A DNA stretch of 64,000 bases from positions 3,296,001 to 3,360,000 of the forward strand of contig OZ242005.1 of the NCBI GenBank assembly GCA_965204725.1. The letters run 5' to 3'. Below are positions 7,782 through 64,000 of this stretch, piece by piece; the stretch's first letter is position 1, and every line of letters begins with the position of its first letter. The position numbers were made by a program, and so were the translations under genes. Source of the DNA: Candidatus Latescibacterota bacterium. GTDB taxonomy: Bacteria; Latescibacterota; UBA2968; UBA8231. Under the pieces are notes generated by a model. The model searched no databases and was not told where the DNA came from. It saw only the letters and a program-made list of their open reading frames with translations.

Positions 7782-7787
7782 GTACAT

Positions 7788-7862: not shown

Positions 7863-7897
7863 ATGTCGGCATCGCAATAGACGTTCCGCATATAGAT

Positions 7898-8952: not shown

Positions 8953-8965
8953 GTTGCGGGGGCTG

Positions 8966-8994: not shown

Positions 8995-8995
8995 A

Positions 8996-43796: not shown

Positions 43797-43954
43797 TCCA
43801 CACCTCTGGTCCATGAATGGCGAGAATATATGATTTTTCAGCAAAAAAGCCGCAAAACCACCGCCCGCGTCCTATGATCCCCGTCCTTGCCGCAGCAAAG
43901 GGTAATTTCTATAATTGCGACCATGAGTTGCTTAATTCACCTCTACAGCGATGA

Positions 43955-45658: not shown

Positions 45659-45661
45659 GAC

Positions 45662-47335
45662 CTATGGGCTCCTATTCTCTCCGAAAGCGGCGTTGAGGTT
45701 ATCCTCCCGAATAACCACTTTCGCTGCGTATTTATTGCGCACTTCTTCGGTAAACTGATTAAAGGCCTTTCTGTTTTTTTCTCTTTTAAGTTGGGACCGG
45801 ACTCTCCACTCGGCCTCCGCAAAAGTCTCTCGCTTGCGTTCCCTAGAAAGCACCTTAAATATAGAATAACCTTCATTGACCTTGGCCGGACCAGTGAGCA
45901 CTCCGATCTCGGCTTTTTCGGCGAGTTCTACAAAACCGCCGAAAAAGTTCTTTTCAAAAAGGTGGAAGTGGAATCGGCCTTCTTCATCCCGATCCTCTAG
46001 CGACCGGATAGAATACTTCTTGGCCAAGTCGCCTAATGGGGCTCCCTTTTGTATCTGCTCCATCAACCTCAGGGCCTCGGCCTCCGTCTGTACTAGAATC
46101 TCCTGTACTTCGATTTGCTCGGGTTGCAGATACCTTTCCGCATGGGCCTCATAAAACTGGCGCAACTCGTTTTCAGCGATGGTCACTTTAGCTCTTAGGA
46201 CTCGCGCCCTGAGGGCTCGTAGCAAAAATTGCTTTGCCTGATCTTCCAACCACTCGATCGTCTCTGCTTCCTCGTCTATGCCAGCACGCAGGGCCGCTTC
46301 CACGAGCATCGCATTGGGCACGACATGGCGCTCGGCAAAAGCGATCACTTGGCTGGAGTCGCTGAGTTGGGCTAGGGCATTGCCTTTCAGGGCGTGGCCA
46401 GCTTCTGCCAAGTCTTGAGCGGTTATTTCGCCGCCGTCGTACCGATAGAGAACTATATTGCGTTCAGTCTCCAGGGCAAAAGATGTACCGCCACGCACTT
46501 TTTCGACAATGAGCGCGAGACCTTCCCGATCCAATTCGAGGTGGTATTTTTCCTTGAGTTCAGCGACTAAAATCGATTGAGCCCGCTGCTTTTCCTCCTT
46601 TTTCAGTCCCATTTCGATCGCCAGTCTCCTCTGGGGACTGAGTTCGATGGTAGAATCGGCGATGACCGTGAAAATCGAATAGTGCCCGCCGATTTTTATG
46701 GGTTCGGAGATTTCGCCTAAGGCGAGGGAAAACAGTTTGTCCTGAAGGGGGGTGACCATGTTTTCTCGGGTGGTATAACGGCCTAAGTCCCCACCTTGGG
46801 CCGAGGTTTCTTTGTTTATGGACCATTTCTTGGCGACTTGCCCAAAAGGCACCCCATTTTTGAGTTCTCGGAGGACGACCAAGGCATTTTCTCGGCTGGG
46901 GACCATTATATCGGCCAATCTGATCGCTCTAGTAAGCCCCATCTGTTCAGCGTATTTCCGCACCTTGCTCTCCTCCACTTCCTCTTCTACCTCCAGTGCT
47001 CTATCTTGGAAAATGCTGACCAATTTTTTCCGCCGGACCCCTTCCAGTCGGGCGCGAAATTCAGGGCTTTCGTCGAGATCAGTCGTCTTCGCCTCCATGG
47101 TCAGCAGTTCGATATTGATCATGGTGTTCAAATGATTCTTCGCTTCTTCTACCCTAGTGGACTCCGCCTTGGCATATTCGGGGAGGTCATCTATAAATTT
47201 CCGCAACTGGTCAACCGTTATCTCCGCATCACCTATCTGAGCAACGACTCGTTCTCCTATTTCCACTGTGCAACCCATGAGCGCGGCAAAAAGTACGAGT
47301 GGTAAAAGACAAAATACAGTCATTTCTCTTGACAT
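45662..47335 (-). CDS. Lipoprotein peptidyl-prolyl cis-trans isomerase with two parvulin (PpiC) domains (PrsA/SurA-like)
   Basis: Lipobox LMGC; VAQIGDAEIT; FGQVAKKWS..GGDLG..GEISEPI; second domain EILV..LAKKYS..G.LTGP..GYSIFKV. Confidence 0.9.
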   Translation of the reverse strand: MSREMTVFCLLPLVLFAALMGCTVEIGERVVAQIGDAEITVDQLRKFIDDLPEYAKAESTRVEEAKNHLNTMINIELLTMEAKTTDLDESPEFRARLEGVRRKKLVSIFQDRALEVEEEVEESKVRKYAEQMGLTRAIRLADIMVPSRENALVVLRELKNGVPFGQVAKKWSINKETSAQGGDLGRYTTRENMVTPLQDKLFSLALGEISEPIKIGGHYSIFTVIADSTIELSPQRRLAIEMGLKKEEKQRAQSILVAELKEKYHLELDREGLALIVEKVRGGTSFALETERNIVLYRYDGGEITAQDLAEAGHALKGNALAQLSDSSQVIAFAERHVVPNAMLVEAALRAGIDEEAETIEWLEDQAKQFLLRALRARVLRAKVTIAENELRQFYEAHAERYLQPEQIEVQEILVQTEAEALRLMEQIQKGAPLGDLAKKYSIRSLEDRDEEGRFHFHLFEKNFFGGFVELAEKAEIGVLTGPAKVNEGYSIFKVLSRERKRETFAEAEWRVRSQLKREKNRKAFNQFTEEVRNKYAAKVVIREDNLNAAFGENRSP

Positions 47336-47374
47336 TTAGCTCAGATCTCCTCTGCATTCCTGCACACGGGTAGA

Positions 47375-50086
47375 TTAGTCCAAACCGGCAAATACCGTGG
47401 CAAAAGCCATTCTGCCTGTTTCGGTTTCGTTGTCGCTGGCTCTTCTGGTCAACCTGAGTCCCATCAGGGTCGTCAGACTATAGCCCAAGTAATTTGAATT
47501 ATTGGAGAACTGGGCCGCGCCGACAATTTCACTGAAGTCGTCCAGCAGTCCTTCCTTGACCGCTGTATCCGAATCCCTGAGTTGCTGGAAAACGGTATAT
47601 TCCACGCCTGCCTGCATAGTGGAGTTATTAAACAATGGCCACCGGGCCAGTAAGGAAAAAATCAGGGTGTCTTCCCTGCGTTTGGGATCTGATTTAAGTG
47701 CTGGCGACTCTATCCTCAGTTCATTTTTGATTTTGGGCTGGATATCGAGATTAACGAATTTGAGAGTATAGTCCACCTTATTTATCAGGCCGACAAAAAC
47801 GAAGTCCCGTTGCAAATCGGGCTGTCTTTCCCTTTGATGCCAGTGGTCGTATTTCAGCTTGTTGACGAGATTTAGATTCTTCAGCTTGGTATAGCTGAAG
47901 CTTATATAGGACGAGTTTATCCACGTATTCCGGGCCGCCAGAGGATCAATGGTAGGGACGTTGCGCCTCTCGAATTCGTCCCACTGGCGAAGGTCATTCT
48001 CTATATTGTCCTTAGCCAGCCTAAAATTCTCAAAAATCCTCACCCTTCCTAGGCCGGGGTAGTCCTTTTCTAGGGTGAAAAGCAAATAATGGGTGGTATT
48101 TTCTCCATCACCGGCAATGAGACTCTCGTCAGTGCGGCCGATAGTCAACCTCATCTCTGGAGTAATGTTGACGCCCGCATAAAAATTGTACCCGCTTAAA
48201 TCCCGACCATAGGGAAAGTCTGCTTCATCATCGTTTTCAAACCGGTCTATCCATATATTGTTGTTCATATCTATGCCGAACAGATACTCGGGGCGGTCCG
48301 TGGAATAGCGCAGAAAGGGCTCGTCGTAGTCAGGCACTAAGTTGGGCAGATCTTCACTGTCGTTTTGATTGAAATCGGAGATAAAATCGACGTTTTCATC
48401 CAAGCCGGGAAATACATTCAAGTCGATGCTTTCGTTTATCCTCTGCCAATCGGGGTACCGATCTTGATCATCGTTGTCGTCGACGAGTTCGTAGTAGAAT
48501 CTCGTCCGGTCCTCGTAATCTATGTTGATCTCGCCTCGGGCCAAGATGGCACTTGTATTGTAATTGTGGTCCATACTGTAAGCCTCGCCGAAAAAGAACC
48601 ACGGCTGAACGGTTCTCGACAGATTCAACATCCAGCCATCGCCTTGGTCAAAAGCCGACAGGTGTTTTGTATGCTGCCTGTTGGGGTATTTTCTATAACT
48701 CCTACTGCGGTCGAATTCGCCGTAGAAATCAAGTCCCCCAATGTTGTTCGCCTCCAGAGTGAAACCGAAAATTTCGGTGGCGGTCGGCAAACCGTACGGG
48801 ATTTTGAGGACTCTGAGATTAGAGCCATCTTTGACGTTTTCTTGGGCTCTGGCTGCCAGCAGAAACACGTTGCTGTTTTGACGGTTAGTCTGGCGGTTTG
48901 AAGACACCTCGATTCTGTAGTCGTTGGCAACCACCAGTTCAAAAGTCACTCTTCTTATCTCCGAAGGGTCGGGGCCGGTGTAGGTTCCCTCGGAAAAGTC
49001 GTATACTAGTTCGATCTGTTCAGAGCCGCTGGCTTCCCAGAAACCCAAGCGCTGAAAGCCGCCTTGAGGCGAGGGCTTGAGACCGGCCTCGCTGGCTCGG
49101 ACAACCTCTCGCCTAAACACCCGTTCCCCCTCTTCATCAATGCTTTCGACTTCGGCTTCTATGATCATATCCCAAGCGAAGAGGGTAGCGCCGCCTTCGT
49201 TATCTTCGGGCGAATCGTCGGTCAGACGGACGAAAAGCTGGGTGATATTTTCAGCGTTTTGACTAGAAGTGATCGAACCACTCCTAGGGGTTCCTTCAAA
49301 AGCGTCCAAGAGTTGGAAGGAGTTGTGGGCACTTACATAGTTGGCACCGATGCTGATGAAATCACCCACTTGGGCAACGGCCCGCCCGCCCATCAGCGTT
49401 GTCAAGCTGGTCGTTTGGTTGACTGCCGGATTGCGAGGACCGGCTCCGCCGGGAGAAGAGATCCGAGAGAGGATCGTCGTGATCTGGTATTTGTCGGCTT
49501 GGTAGTCCACTTGGATTCCGTCCAAGGCCGGCTTTGAGAAGGTCATTGGGGTAAGGGTCGAGCGGATCTCGTTGCCTATGGTGATGGCTAAGTTATGTTG
49601 CCCCTTCTGATCAGAGGCAATGACCAAATTGCTGAAAAAGTTTTGGAATCTCTCGGTTTTGAATAAGTTGCTGCCCCCTTGCTGGGGCTGCGTTTGGGAC
49701 CAGTCGTAGACCAACCATCCCCTAGTGATATAGGAACCGTAAATATCGTAAAAATAATCCCCGGCTAAATTGATATCCACATAGCGATTGTAGTGATCCC
49801 TGGCGTAGTTGGTGTATTCCCACTGTTTCCAGCGGTATTCTAGGAAAAGTTCTTGCGGTACGTACCACTTTTTGACCGCCGGGTCCAAGGCACCGAACAG
49901 CACACCGGACCCGGTTGGTTCAAAGGTGAGTTCGGCTCCTCGGCGCATACCTTTTATACGCATTGGATCGACATCTTGGGCTTGTGCGTCGGTGTCGAAA
50001 GCTAACATGAAAGAGAGAAGGGAACAAACTATGGTCGCTAGACTAATACCGCGCATTAAAGTGCTGCAAGTATGGTAGGTCAGCAT
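47375..50086 (-). CDS. Large secreted hypothetical protein (903 aa), putative outer-membrane beta-barrel with Asp-rich inserts
   Basis: Signal peptide (..AQA/Q); alternating aromatic strands; DDNDDQD, DENVDFISD, DMNNN..D motifs; terminal strand MAFATVFAGL. CDS is clear; function inferred. Confidence 0.8.
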   Translation of the reverse strand: MLTYHTCSTLMRGISLATIVCSLLSFMLAFDTDAQAQDVDPMRIKGMRRGAELTFEPTGSGVLFGALDPAVKKWYVPQELFLEYRWKQWEYTNYARDHYNRYVDINLAGDYFYDIYGSYITRGWLVYDWSQTQPQQGGSNLFKTERFQNFFSNLVIASDQKGQHNLAITIGNEIRSTLTPMTFSKPALDGIQVDYQADKYQITTILSRISSPGGAGPRNPAVNQTTSLTTLMGGRAVAQVGDFISIGANYVSAHNSFQLLDAFEGTPRSGSITSSQNAENITQLFVRLTDDSPEDNEGGATLFAWDMIIEAEVESIDEEGERVFRREVVRASEAGLKPSPQGGFQRLGFWEASGSEQIELVYDFSEGTYTGPDPSEIRRVTFELVVANDYRIEVSSNRQTNRQNSNVFLLAARAQENVKDGSNLRVLKIPYGLPTATEIFGFTLEANNIGGLDFYGEFDRSRSYRKYPNRQHTKHLSAFDQGDGWMLNLSRTVQPWFFFGEAYSMDHNYNTSAILARGEINIDYEDRTRFYYELVDDNDDQDRYPDWQRINESIDLNVFPGLDENVDFISDFNQNDSEDLPNLVPDYDEPFLRYSTDRPEYLFGIDMNNNIWIDRFENDDEADFPYGRDLSGYNFYAGVNITPEMRLTIGRTDESLIAGDGENTTHYLLFTLEKDYPGLGRVRIFENFRLAKDNIENDLRQWDEFERRNVPTIDPLAARNTWINSSYISFSYTKLKNLNLVNKLKYDHWHQRERQPDLQRDFVFVGLINKVDYTLKFVNLDIQPKIKNELRIESPALKSDPKRREDTLIFSLLARWPLFNNSTMQAGVEYTVFQQLRDSDTAVKEGLLDDFSEIVGAAQFSNNSNYLGYSLTTLMGLRLTRRASDNETETGRMAFATVFAGLD

Positions 50087-50124
50087 GAGAGTTCCACCCT
50101 AGCTTTCAGGTAAAATGGGAATAA

Positions 50125-51888
50125 TCAATAGACTATAGGGACAAGTTTCGTCTTGCTCTCAGATCCTGAATCTGCATCAATTTCCACTCGCACCAAATAG
50201 ATTCCGGGCAGCACTTTGGCACCGCTCCCGTCTGTTCCATCCCAAGCCCTTTGGTATCTCTTACTGGGATCCAACCCTGAATAGATCGCCTTTATACGCC
50301 TTCCAGAAAGATCGTATATATCCACCGAAACTAAGGCACCACCTGTCAGGTTGACGATGTCGTAGGTCACCAAGACTTCATCATTTAGGCCGTCGCCGTT
50401 GGGAGTAAAAGGGACGGGAGTCACTTTCATGGAATGAATGAGGTCTTTGCCCACCGAGATCTCGACCGAAAGGTCATCCCCCTGCGCCTCAAAATCAGAG
50501 GCTGCATCGCCCTCGGTGACTACTTGGGGCAGATGGTCCGGTTTTTGGCTATCGGAGACTCTGCCGGCAAAAAAAGTGTTGTACTGCAAAGCCACGTTCT
50601 CAAAGACTACTCGCAAGGTACGGTTCCCCACAATCCGGGGGAAGCTAATTTGGCCCCCGTCTTCTGTATCCACCTTTTCCCATCCGACATCGATCCCGTC
50701 TATTTGCACAGATCTCACTACGTCTACTGGTGCCATAGTCTTTAGTTCGAGACGGTTAAATCCTCGGCTGTTGACGGTTCTCACGGCATAGGTAAAGGGA
50801 GTATTCTGCCCAATCAGAGCACTTTGGGGCCATATCTCGCCCACCAGCGAGTCGGCTAGGGAAGGAGATACCTCAAAGGCGAGGGAATCAACGGTCGCCG
50901 CTGCTAGAATATCGCTGGTCTTGAGGAGTAAACGGAACTGAAAAAAACGACGCGGGGCTGGTGATTCAATAGCCGTATGCACTCCGGCAGGATAGGGGGA
51001 GGACCAAGTGCTCCAAGACAGCGAATCGCTGGGATCCGGTGTGTTGCCGCTCCGAGTCGATAGGATAGCATCTGTTTTCGTTGGTTCGCCAATGCTACTC
51101 CTAGCCCATGTTATATCGCCAAAGATAGCGGGCTGTTCTCGATCAAATACTCTTGAGGTATACGATGCTGTAGAGGCGAAACCTGCACCAAAGACTTGAA
51201 ATTCGTCAATCTCCCATTCCCCGCGTACCAGTTGTTTCACCTCTATGAAACGAACAAACTGTAGGGGGATGTCTAGGTCAATGGTCGGCTTGAGGTTGCG
51301 TTCCTCGGTTTTAAAAACCTTGAAATCCGGCGTCCCGGCTAGGGTTTTCTGCTCCTCGCTGCCGTCGTTCAGCAGCAATTCATAGCCTTTTAGGAAAAAC
51401 TCTTCAAATCCCTTGCGCGGGAAAAACTTGATCCGATTGACCCCGAAGCGCTCACCCAAATCTATCCTGAATATAACGCCTGTAGGAGAACCGCCCTTTA
51501 CTTCAAAGGCCTTGGTCGTGTCGCCGCTGACCATGTGCGCCAATTGTTTATTCAAAAGACTCTGAGATGTTTCAAGCACTATTCTCGCGTTGGGCGATGT
51601 TACGGCCCCTCCTCTTTCAAATATTTTTAGGACGATATTGTCTTCGGGACCTGTCTGAGCCGGCTGAATTTGGCCGGGATTGGCGTCAAAGTCGATAACC
51701 GATATCTCGGAATAATGGCCACCCCATGCTAGGGTCCCTGGACCGCCTCCAATGACGACCTTCACCCCATAGCCTTGGGTCGGTACAAGTCCCTGCAATA
51801 GACAAGAGAACGCTAATAGCGCGGTCTTGACTAGTGGTGGCTTGTTAAACCTGTTCCTCTCGGATCGTATAAGATTAATAGGAGACAT
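50125..51888 (-). CDS. Secreted protein with discoidin-like region and FlgD-Ig/T9SS-like C-terminal domain (paralogue 3)
   Basis: IDLGERFGVNRIKFFPR; WSTWS..Y..SPAPRRFFQ; P.PFTPNGDGLND..YDLSGR..WDGTD..G..V.PGIY. Confidence 0.85.
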   Translation of the reverse strand: MSPINLIRSERNRFNKPPLVKTALLAFSCLLQGLVPTQGYGVKVVIGGGPGTLAWGGHYSEISVIDFDANPGQIQPAQTGPEDNIVLKIFERGGAVTSPNARIVLETSQSLLNKQLAHMVSGDTTKAFEVKGGSPTGVIFRIDLGERFGVNRIKFFPRKGFEEFFLKGYELLLNDGSEEQKTLAGTPDFKVFKTEERNLKPTIDLDIPLQFVRFIEVKQLVRGEWEIDEFQVFGAGFASTASYTSRVFDREQPAIFGDITWARSSIGEPTKTDAILSTRSGNTPDPSDSLSWSTWSSPYPAGVHTAIESPAPRRFFQFRLLLKTSDILAAATVDSLAFEVSPSLADSLVGEIWPQSALIGQNTPFTYAVRTVNSRGFNRLELKTMAPVDVVRSVQIDGIDVGWEKVDTEDGGQISFPRIVGNRTLRVVFENVALQYNTFFAGRVSDSQKPDHLPQVVTEGDAASDFEAQGDDLSVEISVGKDLIHSMKVTPVPFTPNGDGLNDEVLVTYDIVNLTGGALVSVDIYDLSGRRIKAIYSGLDPSKRYQRAWDGTDGSGAKVLPGIYLVRVEIDADSGSESKTKLVPIVY

Positions 51889-54526
51889 GTACTAAGCGGT
51901 AGTCCGAGGTATTTCTACTCGATTTTGAATCGACCTTAATGTCGATCCTCAGCACATATATGCCAGGGGCCACCAAATCCCCGAATTTATCGACTCCGGT
52001 CCAGACCACGGAATGCCGCCCCGTGGTTATGTACTCATCGCGCAGTTCGTGAACAAGACGCCCACCTAGATCGTATATTTTCACCTGTAACGGCGTTGAT
52101 GCCTTCACCCGCATGAGTGAAAAACTCACAGTCATATCATCGTTGATGCCGTCGCCGTTGGGGGTGAAGATCTTATTTTTGACTTCGATATCCCCTAGTA
52201 CCACTCCTCTTTCAAGGGCTAAGATCACGGTTTTTTCGCTGTCCGTGGTCTCGTTCGCATCGCCTGGGTCCACTCTTTGCCACGAATTGGGAATGGAAGA
52301 ATGGCCGATAGACCCATTGAAGAAGGTGGTAAAATCGAATGTGGTCGCCGCAAACTGGATTTCGATCAACGCGGCCCCGCCGGTCGTCTTTATGGGAGTG
52401 GGCAGGCGCACCCAAAGCGAATCGGAACCACCGCCTACCACCTCAAAGCCCTCGCTCTGGGCGGTATAGGTTTGAGGCGGCTGCCCTGTGAGGTCCACGT
52501 GGGCTTGCTTGAATTTCATTTTGACGCCGGAGGGAGCTTCAATGAGAATTTCGTCAAATCCCTCGTTGGCCGCCTCAAAGGTCGTGCGGATGAAATAGGA
52601 AAACGATTGCTCAGCACCAATCACCTCGAGTTGGGCGGGCAGCACCTCGCCAATAACTGTTTTGGCGATTGGCGTTACAAAATTGAGTTTCACCCAACGC
52701 AGTGTAGCCGCTACAAGAGGATTTTCCGTGATAAAGGTCGCTTGGATAGCGACGAATTTCCGCGGACTAGGCGAGGTGATTTTGTCTCCCGAGTTGAAAT
52801 AGCGTTGACTCCAACTGCTCCAATCGCTGCCCGGGTTGGTTTGGGTAACGACGGGTCCAACAGAGGCATCCCCAAAGAATTTTTTGTCCGTAGCGTACGC
52901 TTCCGCTGCTTCTTCTTCGGTGCCCGGAAACAACTCACCGTTCTTTTTATAGTAGAGCGTAGTAGTTTTGACCGTATTGCCGGTGCGGGTCTGGAGAATA
53001 ATATCCGTACCCGGCGGTATATCCGCATCCCACTCAATAGACGCCAAATTTTGGGGAGTGGCCCCCAATTCTATGAACGCCGAAGGCCCGTCAAAGACCG
53101 ATTCGATCCGAGCCTCGGGCATGTACCCCTCGCCGAAAAACTGAATCTCTGACAAGCCGTGGCGTCCGGCCCTTACATGGAGCTTATAGGTAAAAGAAAA
53201 ATGCTTGACTTTGGTGAGTGGGAACTTAAAATCGTGGTACGATTCACCAGAGTTGATATGGTCGAGCGACCCTACTGTTTTCCAGGCCAGACTCCCGCCA
53301 GCATTGGTGGAGCCATCTGAGACTTCAATGCGGTAGGCGCGGAAAGGCCCAGGGGGGTTACTACTGGCTTGGAGTACGCGGATATTGTCCAGAAAGAAGG
53401 CCCCTCCCAGATCTGCCACTAACGCACGCTCGACATCGGGCGGCTGCGAAGGCAGCAGCCTATCGGGATTGTACCCCCCTTGAGCGGGCCAGTACAACGC
53501 CTTTTCTACACTATATATTACCCCGTCTACCACCACCCCTTCAGCCCCGTTGTTTTCCCAACTCGTCACTTTGCCACCCCGCTCCAGTACGCCAATGCCG
53601 ATATTGTCGCCGATCGACCAGACTTCCACTTCCGCCAATCGAGGCAACTCGCGGCGATAGTAAACGACAGGACCTTGACTGGCCGTGCCAGCCAAGGTCT
53701 CCCAATCTTCGCGTCCTTCCAGCAATCGCGTCCTTCCCGAGGCTTCCCGACGAAAGTATTCTATATCGCCCTGTTGCTCGGGATCAAGGGCCTCATAATT
53801 GGACTGGGAAACTTGTCTTGCCTTGCCAAAATCGCTGTCTGTGACGCCGACAGAGACGAATCTGATCACATCGCCGGTAAAATCTCCGCGCACCTGGGTC
53901 CATTTGGTGGGCAACTGGTTGGTCAAATCGACTTCAAAGACCCGTTCATTCTTGATGGGCTTGTTCGTTGAGAAGCGTTTCCTGTACACCAGCGGTCCGA
54001 TGATCGTCTCCCCTTGAGAGGTGAGGACCTTGAATTGGAGAAAGGGGTCTCCCAAATCCTCCCCGACAAACTTGAGAACGATTTTATTGGCCGATACGGC
54101 TCGCCCTAAATCGATTTGTACCCACCAATCCCTAAGAGGGACGGAAGTGTCCGGCTCCCAGTAGGTGTCCATCCTGCCGTCCATGAGGTTTGCTGCGCTC
54201 AAGCGATTGGAGCCGGCGTCCCATATCCCACCGCCGAACTCGGAGGCATTCAAAACCGCGTTAATGCCGGGGACTATCTTTTCGGCACCATCTATTTCGA
54301 GCCTAGTGTTCTTGCGTATAAAGGCCGGTTTCACACCATCCTCGGTGATCTGGATGGTCTTTGCCACCGCCTGCCAACGAGCCCAGTGATCCTTGGACTC
54401 AATGACAGCCACGCCGTCTTGGATAGAAAAACCCTCTTGCCCCCAAGCGACTTCACCTAAGATCATTCTACCCAAGATACAGGCCAAGCTAGTGCTCACC
54501 AGCTTGAATGTTCTCTGCCATGCCAT
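51875..54526 (-). CDS. Secreted protein with two discoidin-like regions and FlgD-Ig/T9SS-like C-terminal domain (paralogue 2)
   Basis: NLMDG..TYW..WVQIDLG; DLGGAFFLDNI; WSSWS..Y..SPSPRKF; FTPNGDGIND..YDLGGR..W.G.D..G..VAPGIY. Confidence 0.85.
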   Translation of the reverse strand: MAWQRTFKLVSTSLACILGRMILGEVAWGQEGFSIQDGVAVIESKDHWARWQAVAKTIQITEDGVKPAFIRKNTRLEIDGAEKIVPGINAVLNASEFGGGIWDAGSNRLSAANLMDGRMDTYWEPDTSVPLRDWWVQIDLGRAVSANKIVLKFVGEDLGDPFLQFKVLTSQGETIIGPLVYRKRFSTNKPIKNERVFEVDLTNQLPTKWTQVRGDFTGDVIRFVSVGVTDSDFGKARQVSQSNYEALDPEQQGDIEYFRREASGRTRLLEGREDWETLAGTASQGPVVYYRRELPRLAEVEVWSIGDNIGIGVLERGGKVTSWENNGAEGVVVDGVIYSVEKALYWPAQGGYNPDRLLPSQPPDVERALVADLGGAFFLDNIRVLQASSNPPGPFRAYRIEVSDGSTNAGGSLAWKTVGSLDHINSGESYHDFKFPLTKVKHFSFTYKLHVRAGRHGLSEIQFFGEGYMPEARIESVFDGPSAFIELGATPQNLASIEWDADIPPGTDIILQTRTGNTVKTTTLYYKKNGELFPGTEEEAAEAYATDKKFFGDASVGPVVTQTNPGSDWSSWSQRYFNSGDKITSPSPRKFVAIQATFITENPLVAATLRWVKLNFVTPIAKTVIGEVLPAQLEVIGAEQSFSYFIRTTFEAANEGFDEILIEAPSGVKMKFKQAHVDLTGQPPQTYTAQSEGFEVVGGGSDSLWVRLPTPIKTTGGAALIEIQFAATTFDFTTFFNGSIGHSSIPNSWQRVDPGDANETTDSEKTVILALERGVVLGDIEVKNKIFTPNGDGINDDMTVSFSLMRVKASTPLQVKIYDLGGRLVHELRDEYITTGRHSVVWTGVDKFGDLVAPGIYVLRIDIKVDSKSSRNTSDYRLVHVSY

Positions 54527-54572
54527 GGCATTGGGGCTCCCACGTATTTGCTCATCTGGGGGCGATTAAAAA

Positions 54573-56543: not shown

Positions 56544-56552
56544 CCTTTGGCG

Positions 56553-56592
56553 AAAATAAAAATAAAAAGGGGGGCGATAACCTTGCCCCCCC
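56553..56592 (-). terminator. Intrinsic terminator between the WGxIK gene and the FlgD trio
   Basis: Minus-strand ggggggc/gcccccc stem followed by ttttta tttttatttt. Confidence 0.85.
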
Positions 56593-56621
56593 AATTACCA
56601 ATCTTTCCCTAATTGTTCTAC

Positions 56622-57551
56622 TTAGCGGGAGAAACTCGCCTTGATATTTCCCCAGCTATCCGCCTCGACGGAAGTGCCCATGTCCTCGCCCGGTACCCAG
56701 ATGCTCTCATCATAGGGGAGCAGGACATAGTCGACCATAGCGGTAGCTTTGAAGTAGAGTTCTGTATCGCCGCTGTTGGTCCAGTAGCCGTTGTAATTGC
56801 CTTCAGCACCGTCGTCGTCGTCCTGAACGGCAAAGCCAATACCCATGATTTCTCCTGCCACCATGGTATGGACGATCACATCTTCGTCTTCTATGCCCGT
56901 AGAGCTAGTAGGCAAATCGTCGAAGGGAGTGAACCACATTTCCATGGACAGAGTTCCGGCCCCGCCGTTGATGTCACCCTCAAAACTCCATTTGGCACCA
57001 GAATAAGGCTCGACTCCGGCCCACGGAGCTCCGCCCCAGAGCCACATGTGATTTTCTTGGTGCAGCGTGTAGCGGTAATTCTGGGACAAAGCCCCTTCCC
57101 ATCTCTCCGGGTCCAAATCCGCCGATTGTACATTCTGGAAAATAGCGTCGCCGCTATGGTCGAAGTCTAGGGTTACCTCGACCGTATCGAAATTGTTTTC
57201 GATAGTTCCATAAAAGAGGTCGTCGAACCGTTCCTCCATGAAATACAAGATGTTGGTCACTGGACTCCAACCGAAAATGATGCGCTCAGCTAGATTGGAG
57301 GGGTCGGGGTCTCCTTGGGTGCCGGTGACAGTCTCGATCAGATCCTCATGGGTCACCCAGAAAACCGAGGGTACGTTGTCCCATTCGCTTATGTCGCCGT
57401 CCATCTGGACATCTCTTATGCCATCGACTCCAATAGGCACCTGAACGGCGGCCCAGTTTCTGTCTGACCGCAGGTGAGCCGAACTGGACGCGACCGTGAA
57501 AAGGATAAGACCCAATGCCAAGAAGTTATAACTCGTTGCTTTGTTCATCAC
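56622..57551 (-). CDS. Secreted acidic CBM9/DOMON-like protein with C-terminal TSVEADSWGNIKASF motif
   Basis: Signal peptide; MDGDISEW, GWS....LYF....DD, DTVEVTLD.D, GFAVQDDD (CBM9-like); terminal WGxIK. Confidence 0.8.
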   Translation of the reverse strand: MMNKATSYNFLALGLILFTVASSSAHLRSDRNWAAVQVPIGVDGIRDVQMDGDISEWDNVPSVFWVTHEDLIETVTGTQGDPDPSNLAERIIFGWSPVTNILYFMEERFDDLFYGTIENNFDTVEVTLDFDHSGDAIFQNVQSADLDPERWEGALSQNYRYTLHQENHMWLWGGAPWAGVEPYSGAKWSFEGDINGGAGTLSMEMWFTPFDDLPTSSTGIEDEDVIVHTMVAGEIMGIGFAVQDDDDGAEGNYNGYWTNSGDTELYFKATAMVDYVLLPYDESIWVPGEDMGTSVEADSWGNIKASFSR

Positions 57552-57709
57552 CCAAGATCCTTTCTTAGGGAGAAAACTGCTGGTTGAGCGGTGGGCTGCT
57601 TAAGGGGTTTTTTATCTCCTCCTTTCAAACTTTCGGTAGCATGGCGAGCAAAGATACTCGATACTCGAAATTATATAAAAAGAAAGGACCAGAAGATCAA
57701 GCTAATTTT

Positions 57710-59416
57710 TCATTTGGACAGGGCGCGTCCCGCGCTGCTCTTTCCATCTATGTGGACAATGCCCTCGCCCTCTTGAAGTACCACGAGCCTATTGGCAGAG
57801 AGATTTTCAAATCGTTCCTCTAGGCCACTTGGCCAGCGCACTACCAACAAGTCGATGGACTCTCTCTGCCCCAAGCCGAAATGGGCCCTCAAGTCATTGT
57901 GCGAAAGATAGCTAGCACCACTCCGAATTTCGGCACTTTGCGTGAGTCCTCCACAGCGAACCTCAACCCAGGCCCCTATACCGTCTCTGTTGCTTTCAGT
58001 CCCTATAGTCTTGACCATTAACCAGTTGTTCTTATTGCCGCCATCGTTGTGCAACAAAGTGGGGCGATCGTTTAGGTTCAGGACAAATATGTCCAGATCC
58101 CCATCGTCGTCGTAATCCCCAAAGGAAGCCCCTCTGCTCACTTTTTTAATTCCCAAGCCCTCCCCTGATAGCTGCGATACCTCGACGAAGGTGCCGTCGC
58201 CCAAGTTTTCAAAGAGTTGATTGGTCTGGGCATAGCTAGTGCCTAGGTTGGCCCTGTCCAATTGTGGAAAGAGGTGGCCATTGGCGACGAAGAGATCTTT
58301 ATCGCCGTCGTTGTCATAGTCGAAAAACTCGGTGCCCCAAGCCAAAAACTGGAAACTCTCTTTGCCCACGCCCGCGTCAAAGCTGAGGTCGGAAAAGAAC
58401 GCGCCGCGGTCGTTGTGGTAAAGCGTATTGGTTTGCTCCCAAAAGTTGGTGACGAATATATCTTGGTATAGGTCATTGTCGTAATCCCCATAGGCAATGC
58501 CCATACAGCCTTGAGCCTCACCGCTTTCGCCATAGGCAGCACCGATCATCCAGCCGATGTCGGCAAAAGTGCCATCGCCTTGGTTTTGATAAAGGAAATT
58601 GGGGCCCGTGTCGTTGGCCACATAGATGTCCACATCGCCGTCCCGGTCGTAATCGCCGCCGATCACGCCCATACCGTAGAGCCTATCTTGGTCCACCACT
58701 CGCGCCTCCACGGTCACATCCGCAAAAGTTCCGTCGCCTTGGTTGCGATACAGGATATCCCCCCCCCCCTTCATGCCGCGGGGCCCAAAGTGAACCCTTA
58801 AGCCTTTCCACATATAGGACCTATTAGGAGTGGTCTGTAGAAAGTGCTTGAAATCGACGTAGTTGGCTACGTACAAATCTAGAGATCCGTCGCTGTCGTA
58901 ATCGAGGAAGGCACATCCTGTGCTGAACCGCTCGTCTCCTATTTGGGCGTACTCGGTTACATCGACAAAAGTCCCGTCGCCTTGATTATCGTACAGTACG
59001 TTCCTGCCGTAGTTGGTTATATAAATGTCCAAGTCGCCATCGTTGTCGTAATCGCCGACGGCGCATCCCATCCCCCAGCCAGTGTCGCCCAAGTTCGCTT
59101 CGTCGGTAGCATCGACGAATTTACCGTGCTCGTTTCTATAAAAGGTATTGCGTGGATGCTCTTGGCCTGAAAAGCCAACCACTTTCGACCCGTTCAAGAT
59201 GTACAAATCCAAATCACCGTCTTGGTCGTAGTCGAAGAAAGCCGATCCTCCCATCATGCTATCGACCAAGTACGTCTGCTCTCTATCCCCGGAGACGTTC
59301 TGCGCCACAACCCCTACTTCCTCCGCTACATCCACGAACTGGACTCGCCTCTCTACTGCCCGTCCTTCGACGGCTAAAAGCCGTGAGGAAATAAGGATTA
59401 AAAAAAAGAAGTGCAT
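57710..59416 (-). CDS. CRTAC1-family FG-GAP / ASPIC-UnbV protein
   Basis: FDYDQDGDLDLY repeats, ANGH, SRGASFGDYDDDGD, HFGLG..WPSG. Confidence 0.93.
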   Translation of the reverse strand: MHFFFLILISSRLLAVEGRAVERRVQFVDVAEEVGVVAQNVSGDREQTYLVDSMMGGSAFFDYDQDGDLDLYILNGSKVVGFSGQEHPRNTFYRNEHGKFVDATDEANLGDTGWGMGCAVGDYDNDGDLDIYITNYGRNVLYDNQGDGTFVDVTEYAQIGDERFSTGCAFLDYDSDGSLDLYVANYVDFKHFLQTTPNRSYMWKGLRVHFGPRGMKGGGDILYRNQGDGTFADVTVEARVVDQDRLYGMGVIGGDYDRDGDVDIYVANDTGPNFLYQNQGDGTFADIGWMIGAAYGESGEAQGCMGIAYGDYDNDLYQDIFVTNFWEQTNTLYHNDRGAFFSDLSFDAGVGKESFQFLAWGTEFFDYDNDGDKDLFVANGHLFPQLDRANLGTSYAQTNQLFENLGDGTFVEVSQLSGEGLGIKKVSRGASFGDYDDDGDLDIFVLNLNDRPTLLHNDGGNKNNWLMVKTIGTESNRDGIGAWVEVRCGGLTQSAEIRSGASYLSHNDLRAHFGLGQRESIDLLVVRWPSGLEERFENLSANRLVVLQEGEGIVHIDGKSSAGRALSK

Positions 59417-59431
59417 ATAAACCAGCGACCC

Positions 59432-60967
59432 CTATGGGGTGTGCGCCTGCTTTCGTTTGGCGTCCAAGCTCTGGATGATCTCCTGTTGCTCTTCCGCTTC
59501 CCGATAGCGCCCTGCTTTGATATAGGCATCTTTGAGCAATCGGCGGTACTCGAGATTATGCGGATCGAGACCGACGGCCAGCTTGTACTCGTTGATCGCC
59601 TTTATATATCTGCCCTGTTGGGTATAATGAGCGGCCAATTCGCCGCGGTATTTTGGATTATCAGGCACTAAGATGACCCGTTGTTCCATGTCTGCTATAT
59701 TGCCTGCGCGCAGTTTTTTGAAGATCTCCATTTCCTTGGCACCCTCCTCGCCTCTTCCCTGTTTCAGATAGGCGTTGGCCAGACCGAAATGTGCTTCGGC
59801 ATTGTAGTAGTCGAGTTCGATGGCTTTTTTGAATTTGCCAGTCGCCTCTGCCCCTCTGCCGATCTTGGCGTACACAGACCCCAAGGCATAGTGAAAAATC
59901 GACCGGTCGGGCTCGAGCCGGATGGCCTGCTGGTATTCCTCAATAGCTTCTTGGTATTTTTTGTCTCTCGAGTGGATCATGCCGAGGCGGTAACGAGTGT
60001 AGGCCATATCGGGATTGACGGCGAGTGCCTTGACGAACTGTTCCGCCGCTTGGTCGTACTGTCGTTGGCGTTCATAGGCCATACCCAGATTGTGCTGGAA
60101 CCAACCGTTTTCAGGGGCCAATTCCACGGCCTTGCGATGTTCCTCGACAGCGGCGGCTAGCTTGTCTTGGTCCGCCATGACAGCCCCCAGCAGGGCCAAG
60201 GACTGATCGGTATAGACCAAGCCCAGTTTATCATGCACATCGGCCCAACTCGGCTCGAGTTGCAATGTTCTATGGAATGCTTCTGCGGCCTCTGACAGCT
60301 TACCTATTGCCATATAGGCGTTCCCCAAGACAAAGTGGATAGACGGTTCGTTGGCGACGGCCTTGGCCGCCTGCCGCAATTCCTCTATGGCTTGAGAATA
60401 GTCCCCTTCTTCTAGATATATCGTCCCGAGCCGGTAGCGAGAGGGGCCGTAGTTGGGGTTGACTTCGATAGCTGCTTTGAAATGCTCTGCTGCTTGAGTT
60501 CGCTCTTGGGTCTGCACGTAGATGACCCCTAGTCCGTGGTGGGCGGGAAAGTACTTGGGGTCAGCCTCAATGGCCTTTTGGTAAGAATCGAAAGCCTCGT
60601 CGTACTCTTGGCGAATGAAAAAAATTTTACCCAACTTGTAGTGTGCTGGCGCGTAGCCCGGATCAATCTGGAGTACCTTGGCAAATTCCTCTTCCGCCTC
60701 GCTCAATCGGCTTTGTAGGGCGTAAATGAAACCGAGGCCGTCGTGCGGATAGATATTATTGGCATCTAGTTCTATCGCCTTCCGGTACTCTCTCTCCGCG
60801 CTTTCATAGTCGCCCTTTTGGGCATGGCTTATCCCGAGTCTATAATGCTCTTGGCTCCTTGAGGAAGCACCCACATCCTGTCCATGCACGGCTCCAATGT
60901 GGTACAGGGTACATACCAATGAAATTACATGGCTGATCGATGCCTTGTGCAGACTTGGAAAATACAT
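59432..60967 (-). CDS. Multi-TPR protein, probably secreted
   Basis: About 12 TPR units (H..LG..Y......A...Y.KAI..DP); start taken at the ATG at 60967. Confidence 0.92.
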   Translation of the reverse strand: MYFPSLHKASISHVISLVCTLYHIGAVHGQDVGASSRSQEHYRLGISHAQKGDYESAEREYRKAIELDANNIYPHDGLGFIYALQSRLSEAEEEFAKVLQIDPGYAPAHYKLGKIFFIRQEYDEAFDSYQKAIEADPKYFPAHHGLGVIYVQTQERTQAAEHFKAAIEVNPNYGPSRYRLGTIYLEEGDYSQAIEELRQAAKAVANEPSIHFVLGNAYMAIGKLSEAAEAFHRTLQLEPSWADVHDKLGLVYTDQSLALLGAVMADQDKLAAAVEEHRKAVELAPENGWFQHNLGMAYERQRQYDQAAEQFVKALAVNPDMAYTRYRLGMIHSRDKKYQEAIEEYQQAIRLEPDRSIFHYALGSVYAKIGRGAEATGKFKKAIELDYYNAEAHFGLANAYLKQGRGEEGAKEMEIFKKLRAGNIADMEQRVILVPDNPKYRGELAAHYTQQGRYIKAINEYKLAVGLDPHNLEYRRLLKDAYIKAGRYREAEEQQEIIQSLDAKRKQAHTP

Positions 60968-61025
60968 GGAGCAATTGTCCTCTCTTAGAGACCACCGTGC
61001 GTCTTGCCGAACGGGTCGGGGGAGA

Positions 61026-63284
61026 CTAGTGGGTGTGTGCCATCCCGTCCGACCCGTTGCCCGGGGCCAGGGCGAAAGATTTGAACTGCCAGCGAGTCGG
61101 ACGCGAATCACCTTCGCGGATGTATATGCTTTGGTCCATTTCTATATCGTTGAAATGCTGCACTTCCCCGCTGGTGGGCCAGATGATTTCAATAGCTTGG
61201 ATAGACTCAGCCTGTCCCAAGCCTATTTCGCATTGTAGGCTGGAGGCACCAAAACTGCCTCCGCTGGTCACTGTGGAATAAATGTCGCGGCTGCCATGTG
61301 GGGTATTCACGCTTACTTTTATGCGTGCTCCAATGGCGGCCCGATTGGTGCGCTTGCCTTCGAGCCGGAGCTTGATCCAATGATTGCCGTGGCCCGGATT
61401 GGCAAAGAGGACGTTCTGATAGGTGTCGCCGGTAAAAGCCCCGCCAATGACCGCAAAAATATCTTGGTCGCCATCGTGGTCAATATCGCCAAAAGCCACA
61501 CCGTGGCCCTTTTGCAAATGCCCAAAGCCGCCCGAGGTGGTGACATCTTGGAAGAAATTGCCGTCGGCATTGCGGAACATGCGGTTGGGGACTAGCGTAG
61601 CCATATACGGGTCGCCGGTGCCGATATAACAATCTTGGTACCCGTCGTTGTCTAGGTCGCCAAAATTGCTGCCCATGGCGAGGAGGGGCTCGTCGAGCCC
61701 TACTTGGCGTGTGACATCGGTAAAAGTACCGTCGCCGTTGTTGCGGTATAGACGAGGCTCTTCGGCGCGGTGCGGCAAGCCCAAATAAGCGGCCGCCACA
61801 TCCGCTACCTCGCCCTTGAAACCGGCGACGAATAGGTCCTGCCACCCGTCGTTGTCGTAGTCCCAGAACCAAGTCGGAAAACTGTAGGGCGGTCCAGCTA
61901 CACCTGCCGTGGCGGTCACATCGGCGAAACGCCCACTCCCCTGATTGCGAAAGAGCAGATTGGACTCTTTGGGTGCCAGACGCGAGATGTACAGATCCAG
62001 TTGTCCATCGTTGTTGTAGTCGCCCCAGACGACGCCTTTGGTCCATCCGACCACATCGAGTCCCATTGCCTCGGCCACGTCAACGAATTGTACCGCCGAC
62101 ACGCCGCGCCCAGAGTCTGCGCCTTTGTTGCGGAACAATTCGCACGGATGAGTAGCCCGCCCCTGCGATTCGTTGCCGACAAATAGGTCGATCCACCCGT
62201 CGTTGTCAAAGTCGCCCCAAGCTGCTGTCTGCGTTGGGTGGAAAGTGAGCAAGCCGGCTGCCTCGGTCGCATCGAAAAATCGCCCGTTTCCGCGATTGGC
62301 CAACAGCGAGTTAGGGTAGCGTCCCTCGTCGAGCCAAGCACCGCGCAGCACCAGCACATCCGCATAGCCGTTGTTGTCGTAGTCGGCTTGACAGATATTC
62401 AAACCACCCACAATACCTTCCAAGCCTGCCGCTTGGGTGCGATCGGCGAAGGTGCCGTCCCCTTGGTTGCGGAAGTAGCGGAGTGGGTCGCGCAGTCCCC
62501 AAGATGAAGCCACGATGTCGAGATAGCCATCGCCGTCAAAGTCTTCCATGATGGCCCCCCCCGAAAGTCCCACCACATCCAGCCCTAGCTGAGGAGCGAC
62601 GTCGCGAAACCCCCCAATATCGTAGTCAGAGGTGAATGCTGCGGGTGGTATCAGTAAGTTCTGAGGGACCTCTTCTGGATACTGCCCCAGCGTCATATAG
62701 GCGATATTGAGCAGCCAACGAGCCGACAAATCGCTTGGATTTCTGCTCAGAACTCTCAAAAATTCCTCGACAGCGGCACTTGATCCGCGCTTGATTTGAT
62801 GCACTCCAGTGCCGCGGATCGGCATTAGACAAGAGTCGATATTGTGTTGCACAATGCAGTTTTCTTGTTCGCCCAAACGGAGATAAGCCAAGCCCACTAG
62901 CAGTTGGAGAGAATGCCGAAGCCGAGGATGGTGAACCACAGTCTGTAGTTGCCGGTACTCCTGCACTGCTTGCTCGGATTGCCCGGCTTGCAGCAATTCG
63001 TTGGCAAGGGAAAAGCGAGCTTGCAGGATCTGCTCTCGTCCTTGAGGATTGACAGCCGCACCGGATTGGCGTAGGTGGTCCAACCGAGCGCGGAAATATG
63101 CAACTCGGTCCAAATTCACATACGGATGCGTGGCGGGATCGACATTGACGGCTATGTCTTCTAGGAGGCCGGCCATGCGCTGGGTGCTGGCTGTCTGTTC
63201 TCGCTCAGCGCAGGCTACCAAAACAAAAAACCATCCTGCAACAACTTGGACCCCGTATAGAGTGCTCTGCCTTATTATTGTCAT
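61026..63284 (-). CDS. Long-form CRTAC1-family lipoprotein (helical N-domain, FG-GAP, ASPIC-UnbV)
   Basis: Lipobox LVAC; LRLGEQENC..SC; WLLNIAYMTLG; FG-GAP repeats; FGHLQKGHG; EIGLG..WP. Confidence 0.93.
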   Translation of the reverse strand: MTIIRQSTLYGVQVVAGWFFVLVACAEREQTASTQRMAGLLEDIAVNVDPATHPYVNLDRVAYFRARLDHLRQSGAAVNPQGREQILQARFSLANELLQAGQSEQAVQEYRQLQTVVHHPRLRHSLQLLVGLAYLRLGEQENCIVQHNIDSCLMPIRGTGVHQIKRGSSAAVEEFLRVLSRNPSDLSARWLLNIAYMTLGQYPEEVPQNLLIPPAAFTSDYDIGGFRDVAPQLGLDVVGLSGGAIMEDFDGDGYLDIVASSWGLRDPLRYFRNQGDGTFADRTQAAGLEGIVGGLNICQADYDNNGYADVLVLRGAWLDEGRYPNSLLANRGNGRFFDATEAAGLLTFHPTQTAAWGDFDNDGWIDLFVGNESQGRATHPCELFRNKGADSGRGVSAVQFVDVAEAMGLDVVGWTKGVVWGDYNNDGQLDLYISRLAPKESNLLFRNQGSGRFADVTATAGVAGPPYSFPTWFWDYDNDGWQDLFVAGFKGEVADVAAAYLGLPHRAEEPRLYRNNGDGTFTDVTRQVGLDEPLLAMGSNFGDLDNDGYQDCYIGTGDPYMATLVPNRMFRNADGNFFQDVTTSGGFGHLQKGHGVAFGDIDHDGDQDIFAVIGGAFTGDTYQNVLFANPGHGNHWIKLRLEGKRTNRAAIGARIKVSVNTPHGSRDIYSTVTSGGSFGASSLQCEIGLGQAESIQAIEIIWPTSGEVQHFNDIEMDQSIYIREGDSRPTRWQFKSFALAPGNGSDGMAHTH

Positions 63285-63558
63285 TATGATTATGGCCCAT
63301 TGCCGCGCCGTTTATGTTTGCACTGGCAACCGCCGAAAATTACAGCTATAAAGCACTGTGCGGCAACTCCTTTAATTTTCGCTATACCTTCGACCCTGAG
63401 ACCTCGGTGGGAATAAAGGGGACTTGGGGCCAGCACCGAAAACCAGCCATGCAGATTAGGATAGGTGACGCACGGTCGCCGCCGTTGCAAAACTGGTGAA
63501 TCGGTGCGTTATTGAGTGCATAGTTCCCGTGGAAGATCAAACGAGTAAGGAGGTGTCA

Positions 63559-64000
63559 ATGCCCGTTATAGACGCTCATGTTCACGTGCTTCCCAACTTT
63601 GCTCCAATGACCCCTTGGGAAGACCTAGGGCGGGTCGATCGGCTCCTCCACCAGATGGACGGATGCGGCGTTGACAAAGCCGTCGTGCTGCCGGTGGTGG
63701 CGGAGTACTCGCCGGGCAACAATCAGGAGTGCGCCCAGTGGGGAAGAGAGCATCCCGATCGGTTGGCCGTATTGACGGATGTGCAGATGCACCAGAAAGA
63801 CGCCGCGGAGCGGGTCTTGCGGGCGGGCGAGGAATTCGGTGCCGTGGGCACCAGTTACTACCCGCCCAAGCTCGATGAGAGGATGCAGTGGCTGGTGGAA
63901 GAACCTTGTGATGCGCTCTGGCAGGCGTACAAAGACACTGGCTTAGTCTGCAATTTGCAAATCGGGCCGTCCAATTACGGAATTTTGCTGGAGTTGGCCC
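63559..64000 (+). CDS. Amidohydrolase family protein, 3'-truncated by window edge
   Basis: AAGGAGGT RBS; MPVIDAHVHV..LLHQMDGCGVDKAVVL..HPDRL. Confidence 0.9.
   Translation, partial: MPVIDAHVHVLPNFAPMTPWEDLGRVDRLLHQMDGCGVDKAVVLPVVAEYSPGNNQECAQWGREHPDRLAVLTDVQMHQKDAAERVLRAGEEFGAVGTSYYPPKLDERMQWLVEEPCDALWQAYKDTGLVCNLQIGPSNYGILLELA

Follow-up and report, generated by a model that had tools for sequence, protein, structure and literature searches.

A low-GC gene block of a Latescibacterota genome as a likely copy of a lineage-specific cell-surface cassette

Introduction

What is built by nine genes which lie one after another on the minus strand of a Latescibacterota genome, almost all of them with an export signal? 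The question is raised by positions 45662-63284 of a 64,000-nucleotide stretch of Candidatus Latescibacterota bacterium DNA (assembly GCA_965204725.1, contig OZ242005.1, positions 3,296,001 to 3,360,000 of the forward strand), called the window in this report. An original prediction, made from the letters of the window alone, took the nine genes for a dedicated and undescribed module in which a barrel, a chaperone and surface proteins as cargo are brought together, and which might build a Ca2+-dependent surface structure or a ligand-capture complex. All nine minus-strand open reading frames (ORFs) were confirmed at the predicted coordinates by an ORF check.

The best explanation of the region is that it represents an unusually complete, low-GC (guanine plus cytosine) copy of a cell-surface cassette specific to Latescibacterota. 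The core of this cassette consists of a secreted CBM9-like protein (W), one to four lectin-like proteins with a common C-terminal tail (F), one or two large outer-membrane beta-barrels (O, predicted) and, close by, a lipoprotein with two parvulin modules (P). What these proteins do together is a question of graded answers, which are given below with the evidence that bears on each of them.

Core proteins of the cassette

Protein O (47375-50086; this and all other window genes lie on the minus strand unless stated otherwise) has 903 residues and gave no match in a Pfam scan and none in NCBIfam at E<=0.1. Its AlphaFold2 model, calculated from an alignment of 51 family members, is nearly all beta (predicted local distance difference test score, pLDDT, 82.2; predicted template-modelling score, pTM, 0.79), and a manual count of DSSP elements gives roughly 26-30 long strands, preceded by a signal peptide and a low-confidence region (~105 N-terminal residues in all). 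The label of a barrel, which had been proposed for this protein, is backed by this confident model. Residues 512-630 have no regular secondary structure and carry the invariant Asp, Asn and Pro columns of the family; between D537 and D629 these columns are invariant or near-invariant among the 51 aligned members. The Asp/Asn-rich part (residues 535-630, 48197-48484; pLDDT 54-88) is the best-conserved portion of the family and a candidate Ca2+-binding loop or plug.

Fold searches with O returned large barrels alone, namely SlpA, MtrB, LptD and FimD, at template-modelling (TM) scores of only 0.14-0.26 (Foldseek E 1e-7 to 1e-4; VIA Z ~10 over 336-427 residues). SlpA was the top Foldseek match (TM 0.18-0.23), and weak matches to SlpA_C (PF21620; best E 7.6e-5) were found in 8 of the 51 family members, the O of the window not being among them. 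The similarity to LptD (TM 0.14-0.19) comes with no match of O to LptD/OstA domains in Pfam or NCBIfam, and that to FimD (VIA Z 10.7, 336 aligned residues, root-mean-square deviation 7.4) is a generic fold match accompanied by no usher, PapD-like or pilin domain. These proteins (LptD/LptE, MtrB/MtrA, FimD/PapC, Deinococcus SlpA) resemble O as barrels which enclose or pass another protein and differ from it by the low TM-scores and by family domains which O does not have; the reliance of LptD on SurA has a parallel in the parvulin gene next to O. A profile of the O family found nothing credible among PDB sequences, the one match being a spurious restriction enzyme (E 0.019). The families Plug, TonB_dep_Rec and SusD had no match in the 12 window proteins, nor at E<=1 in the 51 members of the O family. 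It had to be considered that O could prove to be a TonB-dependent receptor or a Spr/Por component; neither these nor an usher or LptD was indicated by any family, profile or PDB-sequence match. A relationship with DUF5916, of which three true genes are present in the host genome, was tried and rejected, since hhalign of the O family alignment against two of the genome's own DUF5916 proteins gave a probability of 0.05%. All 30 nearest Atlas clusters of O carry no annotation, and long fused forms (proteins of 1582-4515 residues) related to O were not found at E<=1e-10, which is weak evidence. By sequence and model, then, O appears to be an outer-membrane barrel of an undescribed family.

The neighbouring gene downstream encodes P (45662-47335), a lipoprotein of 557 residues with the lipobox LMGC. 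Two Rotamase (parvulin) domains were recognised by Pfam, and PDB sequences of HP0175, Cbf2/PEB4 and PrsA match residues 110-250 and 315-545, covering both halves of the protein, each of which is a PrsA/SurA-type foldase plus parvulin module. From these matches P can be regarded as a SurA/PrsA-type double-parvulin foldase lipoprotein.

Three F genes precede O. F1 (54573-56594) encodes 673 residues with a likely start at Met17 (nucleotide 56546), F2 (51875-54526) encodes 883 residues including an F5/8 type C (discoidin) domain, and F3 (50125-51888), directly upstream of O, encodes a secreted protein of 587 residues with carbohydrate-binding module 32 (CBM32)/discoidin and immunoglobulin (Ig)/fibronectin type III (Fn3)-like parts. 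C-terminal domains (CTDs) lie at ~54576-54866 in F1, at ~51878-52186 in F2 and at 50128-50451 in F3, where the domain (residues ~480-587) contains the motif FTPNGDGLND and ends in PIVY. The earlier description of the three as paralogues with a CTD of the FlgD and type IX secretion system (T9SS) kind agrees with Pfam, which places CHU_C (PF13585; 36.6, 32.4 and 28.5 bits, the last in F3; cut-off 27) and FlgD_ig (32.1 bits in F3) at their C-termini. Among PDB sequences the tail is matched best by the FlgD Ig domain (E 6.8e-8), not by a T9SS CTD. F3 was modelled by AlphaFold2 as a string of beta-sandwiches (pLDDT 77.8), and searches by fold and by profile match it to the galactose-oxidase N-domain, CBM32 modules of clostridial glycosidases, ScpA Fn3, FlgD Ig and the PorU CTD; no catalytic domain was found in F3 by these searches. 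By model and matches, F proteins consist of a CBM32/discoidin domain, sandwiches of the Ig/Fn3 kind and a CTD of T9SS type that is private to them.

How private this tail is can be judged from the whole genome. A PNGDGxND-like motif lies near the C-terminus (last 125 residues) of 65 ORFs, every one of which is an F protein, while the terminal signature [VLI][AVS]Y is present in 102 of 102 F proteins. Other CTD proteins of the host end in ...KMLLLK or ...TTKLP, and of the CTD-only proteins 3 of 17 lie within 10 kilobases (kb) of an O gene. The class ending in ...AKKTTKLP is a third CTD class, which forms tandem arrays of ~720-810-residue paralogues at host contig positions 2170938-2193734, 998128-1004735 and 2247550-2252053, and one of these arrays sits just upstream of a divergent barrel gene at 2164624.

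W (56622-57551) is a secreted protein of 309 residues. Its designation as CBM9-like has indirect support from its relatives, since CBM9_1 (PF06452) matches two divergent W paralogues (E 1.4e-9 and 5.5e-6, Pfam) and is found on 13%, 37% and 100% of the members of the nearest Atlas clusters (scores 0.97, 0.96 and 0.93), but the window protein itself had no match in Pfam and NCBIfam scans, CBM9_1 included. The C-terminal motif TSVExxSWGxIK (56625-56675) may possibly be a sorting or docking signal; its WGxIK part is found unaltered in 15 of 21 paralogues, a number that rises to 19 when conservative variants are counted.

From W to P the genes are tightly packed as predicted, with successive gaps of 27, 46, -14 (the F2/F3 overlap), 38 and 39 nucleotides. 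The domain content claimed for the region was also recovered by Pfam (FG-GAP/ASPIC in three proteins, tetratricopeptide repeats (TPR), CHU_C plus FlgD_ig in three, two parvulin domains and FGE-sulfatase), and the N-termini fit signal peptides or lipoboxes, which is a judgement by eye.

Copy number and conservation of the cassette

Is the gene order of the window an accident of one locus? In a census of 4209 ORFs of the host genome, labelled by ourselves, the O family has 38 genes (tblastn gives 45 matches), F, homologous over the body of the protein, has 102, W has 21 and P has 25. The 38 O genes are distributed over ~30 loci. Of the 38 O genes, 24 have an F gene and six have another O as their same-strand upstream neighbour; in the remaining eight this place is taken by an unlabelled ORF (six cases, two of them oppositely oriented), a P gene (one) or a W gene (one). 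No more than 10 kb separate 76 of 102 F, 17 of 21 W and 21 of 25 P genes from an O gene, set against 430 of 4160 for all ORFs, and it can be said that W, F (one to four copies) and O (one or two), with P close by, form the core. Best-match typing of the 102 F genes showed several layouts (W-F1-F2-F3-O, F-F-F2-O, P-F2long-O and F3-O-O), and a single fixed order of F subtypes was rejected; directly before O stands an F3-like gene in 14 of 38 cases, an F2-like gene in 11 and an F1-like gene in 1.

In other genomes, 67 loci were fetched around homologues of O, and F stands directly before O in 66 of them, the exception being cut by the end of its contig. Given that F makes up only 102 of 4209 ORFs, this arrangement is far beyond chance, and conservation of gene order around the barrel, on which the original prediction could have failed, is evident. 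A W gene was seen in 61 of these loci and a P gene in 57. The loci are not independent of each other, as ~20 of them are orthologues of the window locus. These ~20 retain the full order TPR, CRTAC1, W, F, F, F, O, P, convergent CRTAC1, FGE.

Among 1.84 billion cluster representatives, O matches 734 clusters at E<=1e-3. Within the phylum it is found in 107 of 168 genomes and in 75 of 75 of its own family (f1), and it is missing from all 56 genomes of three sister families of the same class (f2 0/3, f3 0/22, f4 0/31). The F body follows O in this distribution (f1 75/75, f2 0/3, f3 0/22), apart from f4, where 16 of 31 genomes gave one weak match each (E 1e-9 to 1e-11). Flanks of some other cassettes (loci L090, L093, L109 and L113) contain a TdeIII endonuclease with a methylase, a C5 methylase, a type I/Eco57I-like methylase and an IS4/5 transposase.

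The idea of a dedicated cassette of barrel, parvulin and surface proteins is therefore upheld in that the cassette is conserved, present in many copies and matched by no described system in the libraries and papers searched; it has to be amended in that the window holds one of ~30 loci and that the CRTAC1 and TPR genes do not belong to the core.

Export and docking of the F proteins

Which route could bring F proteins to the cell surface, and what would hold them there? The host genome encodes SprA (485 + 116 bits) and PorU (623 bits), both over the cut-off, and a PorV-like gene adjoins that of PorU. The module was originally likened to chaperone-usher and SusCD/PUL loci, with none of their recognisable components. 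One recognisable link to a known system does exist, in that the tails are of T9SS type in a genome with SprA, PorU and a PorV-like gene. According to two papers, type-B CTD proteins of Bacteroidota bind PorP-like barrels (PG1035-PorP, SprB-SprF) and type-B substrates depend on cognate shuttle genes, which are often adjacent (PMC9143113, PMC12618676). The PorP/SprF family (TIGR03519) is represented in the host by two weak matches only (44 and 43 bits, cut-off 90.55), neither of which is O, and this scarcity leaves a niche for a substitute partner.

The following scheme is proposed tentatively, with a likelihood slightly below even. F, W, O and P would be carried over the inner membrane by Sec. 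P would escort the giant barrel O, and perhaps also the multi-domain F proteins, through the periplasm, in the way SurA serves LptD, which relies on it. F would leave the cell via the T9SS translocon encoded by the genome, and its tail would be received and held by the cognate O barrel in place of the PorV/PorU hand-over of type-A cargo, following by analogy the logic of type-B cargo and PorP/SprF shuttle or anchor barrels. The product would be a barrel topped with one to three lectin-like proteins (and W), a device capturing glycans or other polymers of a host or of particles. With its width and its conserved acidic loop, O may in addition admit the captured material and so import it, towards DUF6785-type membrane proteins encoded nearby; CRTAC1/TPR pairs would be optional accessories. 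As O does not belong to the PorP/SprF family, the proposal is that F and O work like a type-B pair, not that they are members of that class.

The likeness to SprB-SprF and PG1035-PorP-PorE has further sides. In both cases multi-domain surface proteins with a distinct class of CTD are encoded beside a dedicated barrel, several such pairs occur per genome and the T9SS core is present. In contrast to the 292-position model of PorP/SprF, O has ~900 residues, ~26-30 strands and an acidic loop; one to four cargo genes accompany each barrel here, ~30 loci compare with ~12, and the Latescibacterota set, whose tails stay below the NCBIfam type-B cut-off, also includes a CBM9-like protein and a lipoprotein with parvulin modules.

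Several of the findings weigh against docking of this kind. The F tails score 29.9, 20.6 and 17.9 bits with the NCBIfam type-B model TIGR04131, under its cut-off of 35, and they match the FlgD Ig domain at least as well as that model. A terminal aromatic residue is also typical of barrel-assembly signals, and the F tail could work otherwise. Neither by sequence nor by profile is O similar to PorP/SprF, and with the ~26-30 strands predicted for it is far larger than an anchor needs to be. Nearly every genome of the phylum (163 of 168) has SprA, and these include the 56 genomes of families f2-f4, in which O was not found, so that co-occurrence cannot show a dependence of the cassette on the T9SS; the same distribution makes O a lineage-specific addition and not a core part of the T9SS. 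Many of the 67 fetched loci are mutual orthologues, and their counts overstate the independent support. Finally, the enrichment of DUF6785 and GDSL genes near O, described in the next section, points to uptake rather than mere display.

It may also be asked whether the T9SS is needed at all. In an autonomous mode of secretion, resembling chaperone-usher or two-partner systems, P would keep F unfolded or competent for assembly in the periplasm, O itself would translocate F (perhaps W as well) and retain the tail, the FlgD-Ig-like tail would be a docking domain and the T9SS would have no role. Such a mode would suit the dedicated foldase gene which stands beside barrel and cargo genes in a fixed order. 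In size O ranks with ushers, LptD and MtrB, barrels that hold other proteins or let them through, yet no usher, PapD-like, POTRA or TpsB domain was recognised in Pfam or NCBIfam. The tail itself can be read in both directions: it is unlike all ordinary T9SS tails of the genome, has an aromatic end and finds its best PDB sequence match in FlgD Ig, but it exceeds the Pfam cut-off for the type-B signal CHU_C. A genome with the cassette and without a T9SS was not found; the sole SprA-negative carrier of O (G031, 96% complete) has PorU (603 bits) and many CTD proteins. Secretion by O alone is regarded as improbable.

Neighbouring genes and the question of uptake

Does the cassette display its proteins, or does it also feed the cell? 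A scan for known families covered 140 of the 145 unlabelled ORFs collected near 29 O loci. Recurrent among them are DUF6785 together with DUF6784 (5 ORFs), GDSL esterases (6), GFO/IDH/MocA oxidoreductases (5) and parts of ATP-binding cassette (ABC) importers, and a xylose-isomerase-like TIM barrel, an enolase-superfamily protein, a DHDPS-type aldolase and a sulfatase were also met. No family of glycoside hydrolases or polysaccharide lyases was matched at E<=1e-5 in these 140 ORFs and no regulator of the kind found in polysaccharide utilization loci (PULs) was noticed among them. In the host genome, DUF6785 genes lie within 15 kb of O in 18 of 33 cases (5.8 expected; reached in 0 of 5000 shuffles) and GDSL genes within 12 kb in 5 of 11 (1.6 expected; shuffle fraction 0.014), a mild enrichment. 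SBP_bac_1 genes, with 4 of 12 within 10 kb (1.5 expected; shuffle fraction 0.056), are not significantly enriched. The DUF6785+DUF6784 proteins, 33 copies in the host (for example contig positions 2754684-2756672), have ~650 residues and ~12 predicted membrane segments, and DUF6785 was mentioned in no paper found by literature searches.

These neighbours bring in a PUL-like explanation, in which O would be a wide uptake channel and the counterpart of SusC, F and W would be glycan binders attached by an ordinary T9SS, P would be a biogenesis factor only and inner-membrane transporters would take up the oligomers. The ~30 paralogous loci per genome are indeed PUL-like, carbohydrate-binding-module folds are seen in F and W, DUF6785/DUF6784 membrane proteins are enriched near O, and the importer parts (sugar-type), the oxidoreductases, the sugar-acid-type enzymes, the esterases and the sulfatase would all find a place in it. 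ExbB-ExbD-ExbD share a gene row with the most divergent O paralogues. On the other side, O itself lacks a plug or a TonB-dependent-receptor domain and no SusD-like gene is present. The non-significant SBP_bac_1 result and the missing hydrolases, lyases and regulator speak against this explanation, which moreover leaves unexplained why the F class of tail is on no other protein of the genome. As the main role of the cassette, import is possible but rather doubtful; it is compatible with docking of F on O, and the two do not exclude each other.

The gene row just mentioned lies outside the window, at ~91.9-110.3 kb of the host contig, where 13 genes on one strand house the two most divergent O paralogues (~1030 residues). 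The order of this master locus is a CBM9-like gene, O', two small proteins, F', a small protein, O', a TPR/YfiO-like protein of 1090 residues, ExbB, ExbD, ExbD, a lipoprotein and a double parvulin; the small proteins and the lipoprotein belong to no known family, and the lipoprotein and one of the small proteins are paralogues. This order is retained in 8 of 10 loci of other genomes, one of which comes from another family of the phylum. Through the master locus the families of W, F, O and P are linked to a proton-driven motor, which does not imply that the cassette of the window uses a motor.

A motor suggests still another role, in which the cassettes would supply adhesins to a gliding or surface-transport machine and feed the single master locus of ExbB/ExbD, TPR protein and two barrels, by analogy with SprB/SprF and Agl-Glt. 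The joining of W', O', F' and P' with ExbB/ExbD in a conserved order would agree with this, as would SprB, which is a type-B CTD adhesin held by SprF (PMC9143113). But close O cassettes are present in family f9 (two genomes, 96% and 98% complete), where no master-locus barrel is matched at E<=1e-40, and lectin-type domains with metabolic neighbours fit the capture of nutrients as well or better. An adhesin role is considered very unlikely.

Base composition, accessory genes and expression

Why does the window copy stand out from its surroundings? As had been noticed, the region has a lower GC content than the backbone: it is 0.50-0.56 at 43-63.3 kb of the window, compared with 0.60 genome-wide, and the block has a sharp edge at the last gene. 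The O gene, with 0.498, has the lowest GC among the 38 paralogues (next 0.555; family mean 0.596, standard deviation 0.025). Low GC is retained in orthologous loci of the same genus, where the O gene has 0.484-0.505 and the far flanks 0.56-0.61 (18 full-length loci, L020-L038, the short contig L031 being left out), so that the whole 20-kb block, accessory genes included, behaves as a unit. The block may have entered the genus laterally. A Latescibacterota genome of lower GC holds barrels 61-63% identical (loci L052 and L053).

The accessory genes at the upstream end of the block encode a long CRTAC1-type protein (61026-63284, 752 residues) with FG-GAP/ASPIC domains (Pfam), N-terminal TPR and the lipobox-like LVAC, a TPR protein (59432-61111, an ORF of 559 residues with a likely start at Met49, nucleotide 60967; TPR by Pfam) and a CRTAC1-type protein with FG-GAP/ASPIC domains (57710-59416, 568 residues; Pfam). 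They had been counted as members of the module, and this view was abandoned: only 18 of 44 CRTAC1-type and 19 of 43 TPR genes of the host lie within 10 kb of an O gene, and CRTAC1 and TPR are present in 32 and 34 of the 67 fetched loci. A TPR gene is the immediate neighbour of 20 of 44 CRTAC1-type genes, and the CRTAC1/TPR pair is a separate two-gene unit, loosely linked to the cassette and enriched about fourfold near O.

At the other end, a further CRTAC1-type FG-GAP/ASPIC gene (43955-45658, plus strand, 567 residues) converges on P, with three bases between position 45658 and the end of the P gene, exactly as described earlier. It is inside the same low-GC block and is kept in all 20 orthologous loci which extend that far. 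Beyond it lies a gene for an FGE-sulfatase-domain protein (43002-43844, 280 residues; Pfam), which does adjoin the module as noted and is confined to this orthologous locus: 1 of 6 copies in the host is within 10 kb of O, and the 21 of 67 fetched loci with such a gene are essentially the orthologous set.

No usable operon boundary resulted from scans of 44000-63900, which gave 16 sigma-70 promoter sites against 13.9 expected (standard deviation 3.6) and 30 intrinsic-terminator sites against 21.7 (standard deviation 4.5). Metatranscriptomic contigs from four libraries of two studies, 90-95% identical to the locus, cover 28, 29, 30 and 24 of its 30 bins, and some of them span the F3/F2, F2/F1 and CRTAC1/TPR gene boundaries. 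Since the contigs stem from relatives, are unstranded and may contain carried-over DNA, they are a weak hint of expression, and uncovered bins mean nothing.

A second low-GC stretch of the window, at 3579-9901 (0.43-0.47 at 4-7 kb), encodes a 230-residue protein with a weak HATPase_c match, an 879-residue ORF that falls into no family, an RNA ligase (PF09414) and an IS4/5 transposase, and looks like a mobile or defence islet.

Relation to known systems and significance

What, finally, would the cassette be the counterpart of? With SusC/SusD PULs it shares the many paralogous loci in which an outer-membrane barrel is combined with surface carbohydrate binders, often near genes of transport and sugar metabolism. 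It differs by the lack of a TonB-dependent plug or barrel domain and of SusD, by binders which carry a CTD instead of a lipid and by the absence of glycoside hydrolases and PUL regulators from the 140 scanned neighbours. Outer-membrane proteins composed of CBM9_1 and DUF5916 also join a CBM9-like module to a large predicted barrel; in the cassette the CBM9-like part is a separate protein, and hhalign shows no similarity between the profiles of O and DUF5916. Literature searches found no description of the cassette, and the main text of two genome papers on Latescibacterota/PAUC34f does not mention T9SS, type IX, outer membrane, FlgD or FG-GAP.

A bolder conjecture is that dozens of interchangeable cassettes, each of a giant barrel and CTD-docked lectins, are served by dedicated parvulins, possibly powered through the single ExbB/ExbD-TPR master locus, and together form a phylum-specific counterpart of the Sus-type PUL. 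It is put forward with considerable reserve. If it were true, a further general architecture for the capture and import of polymers over the outer membrane would be recognised, with T9SS-type tails as modules for docking on barrels.

Latescibacterota are widespread, and the isolate names of related records indicate that they include abundant sponge symbionts, of which no member is cultured. In the host genome the four core families comprise 186 genes (38 + 102 + 21 + 25), none of which is explained by current annotation. If O is a receptor or anchor for private T9SS tails, the cargo-shuttle principle would reach beyond Bacteroidota and beyond the PorP/SprF family, and if O is a channel as well, a new route of polymer uptake would be added. 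In either case, testable handles are offered by the motif of the tail, by the acidic loop and by the cognate pairs of F and O on how symbionts hold, and feed on, the glycans of their hosts or of particles.

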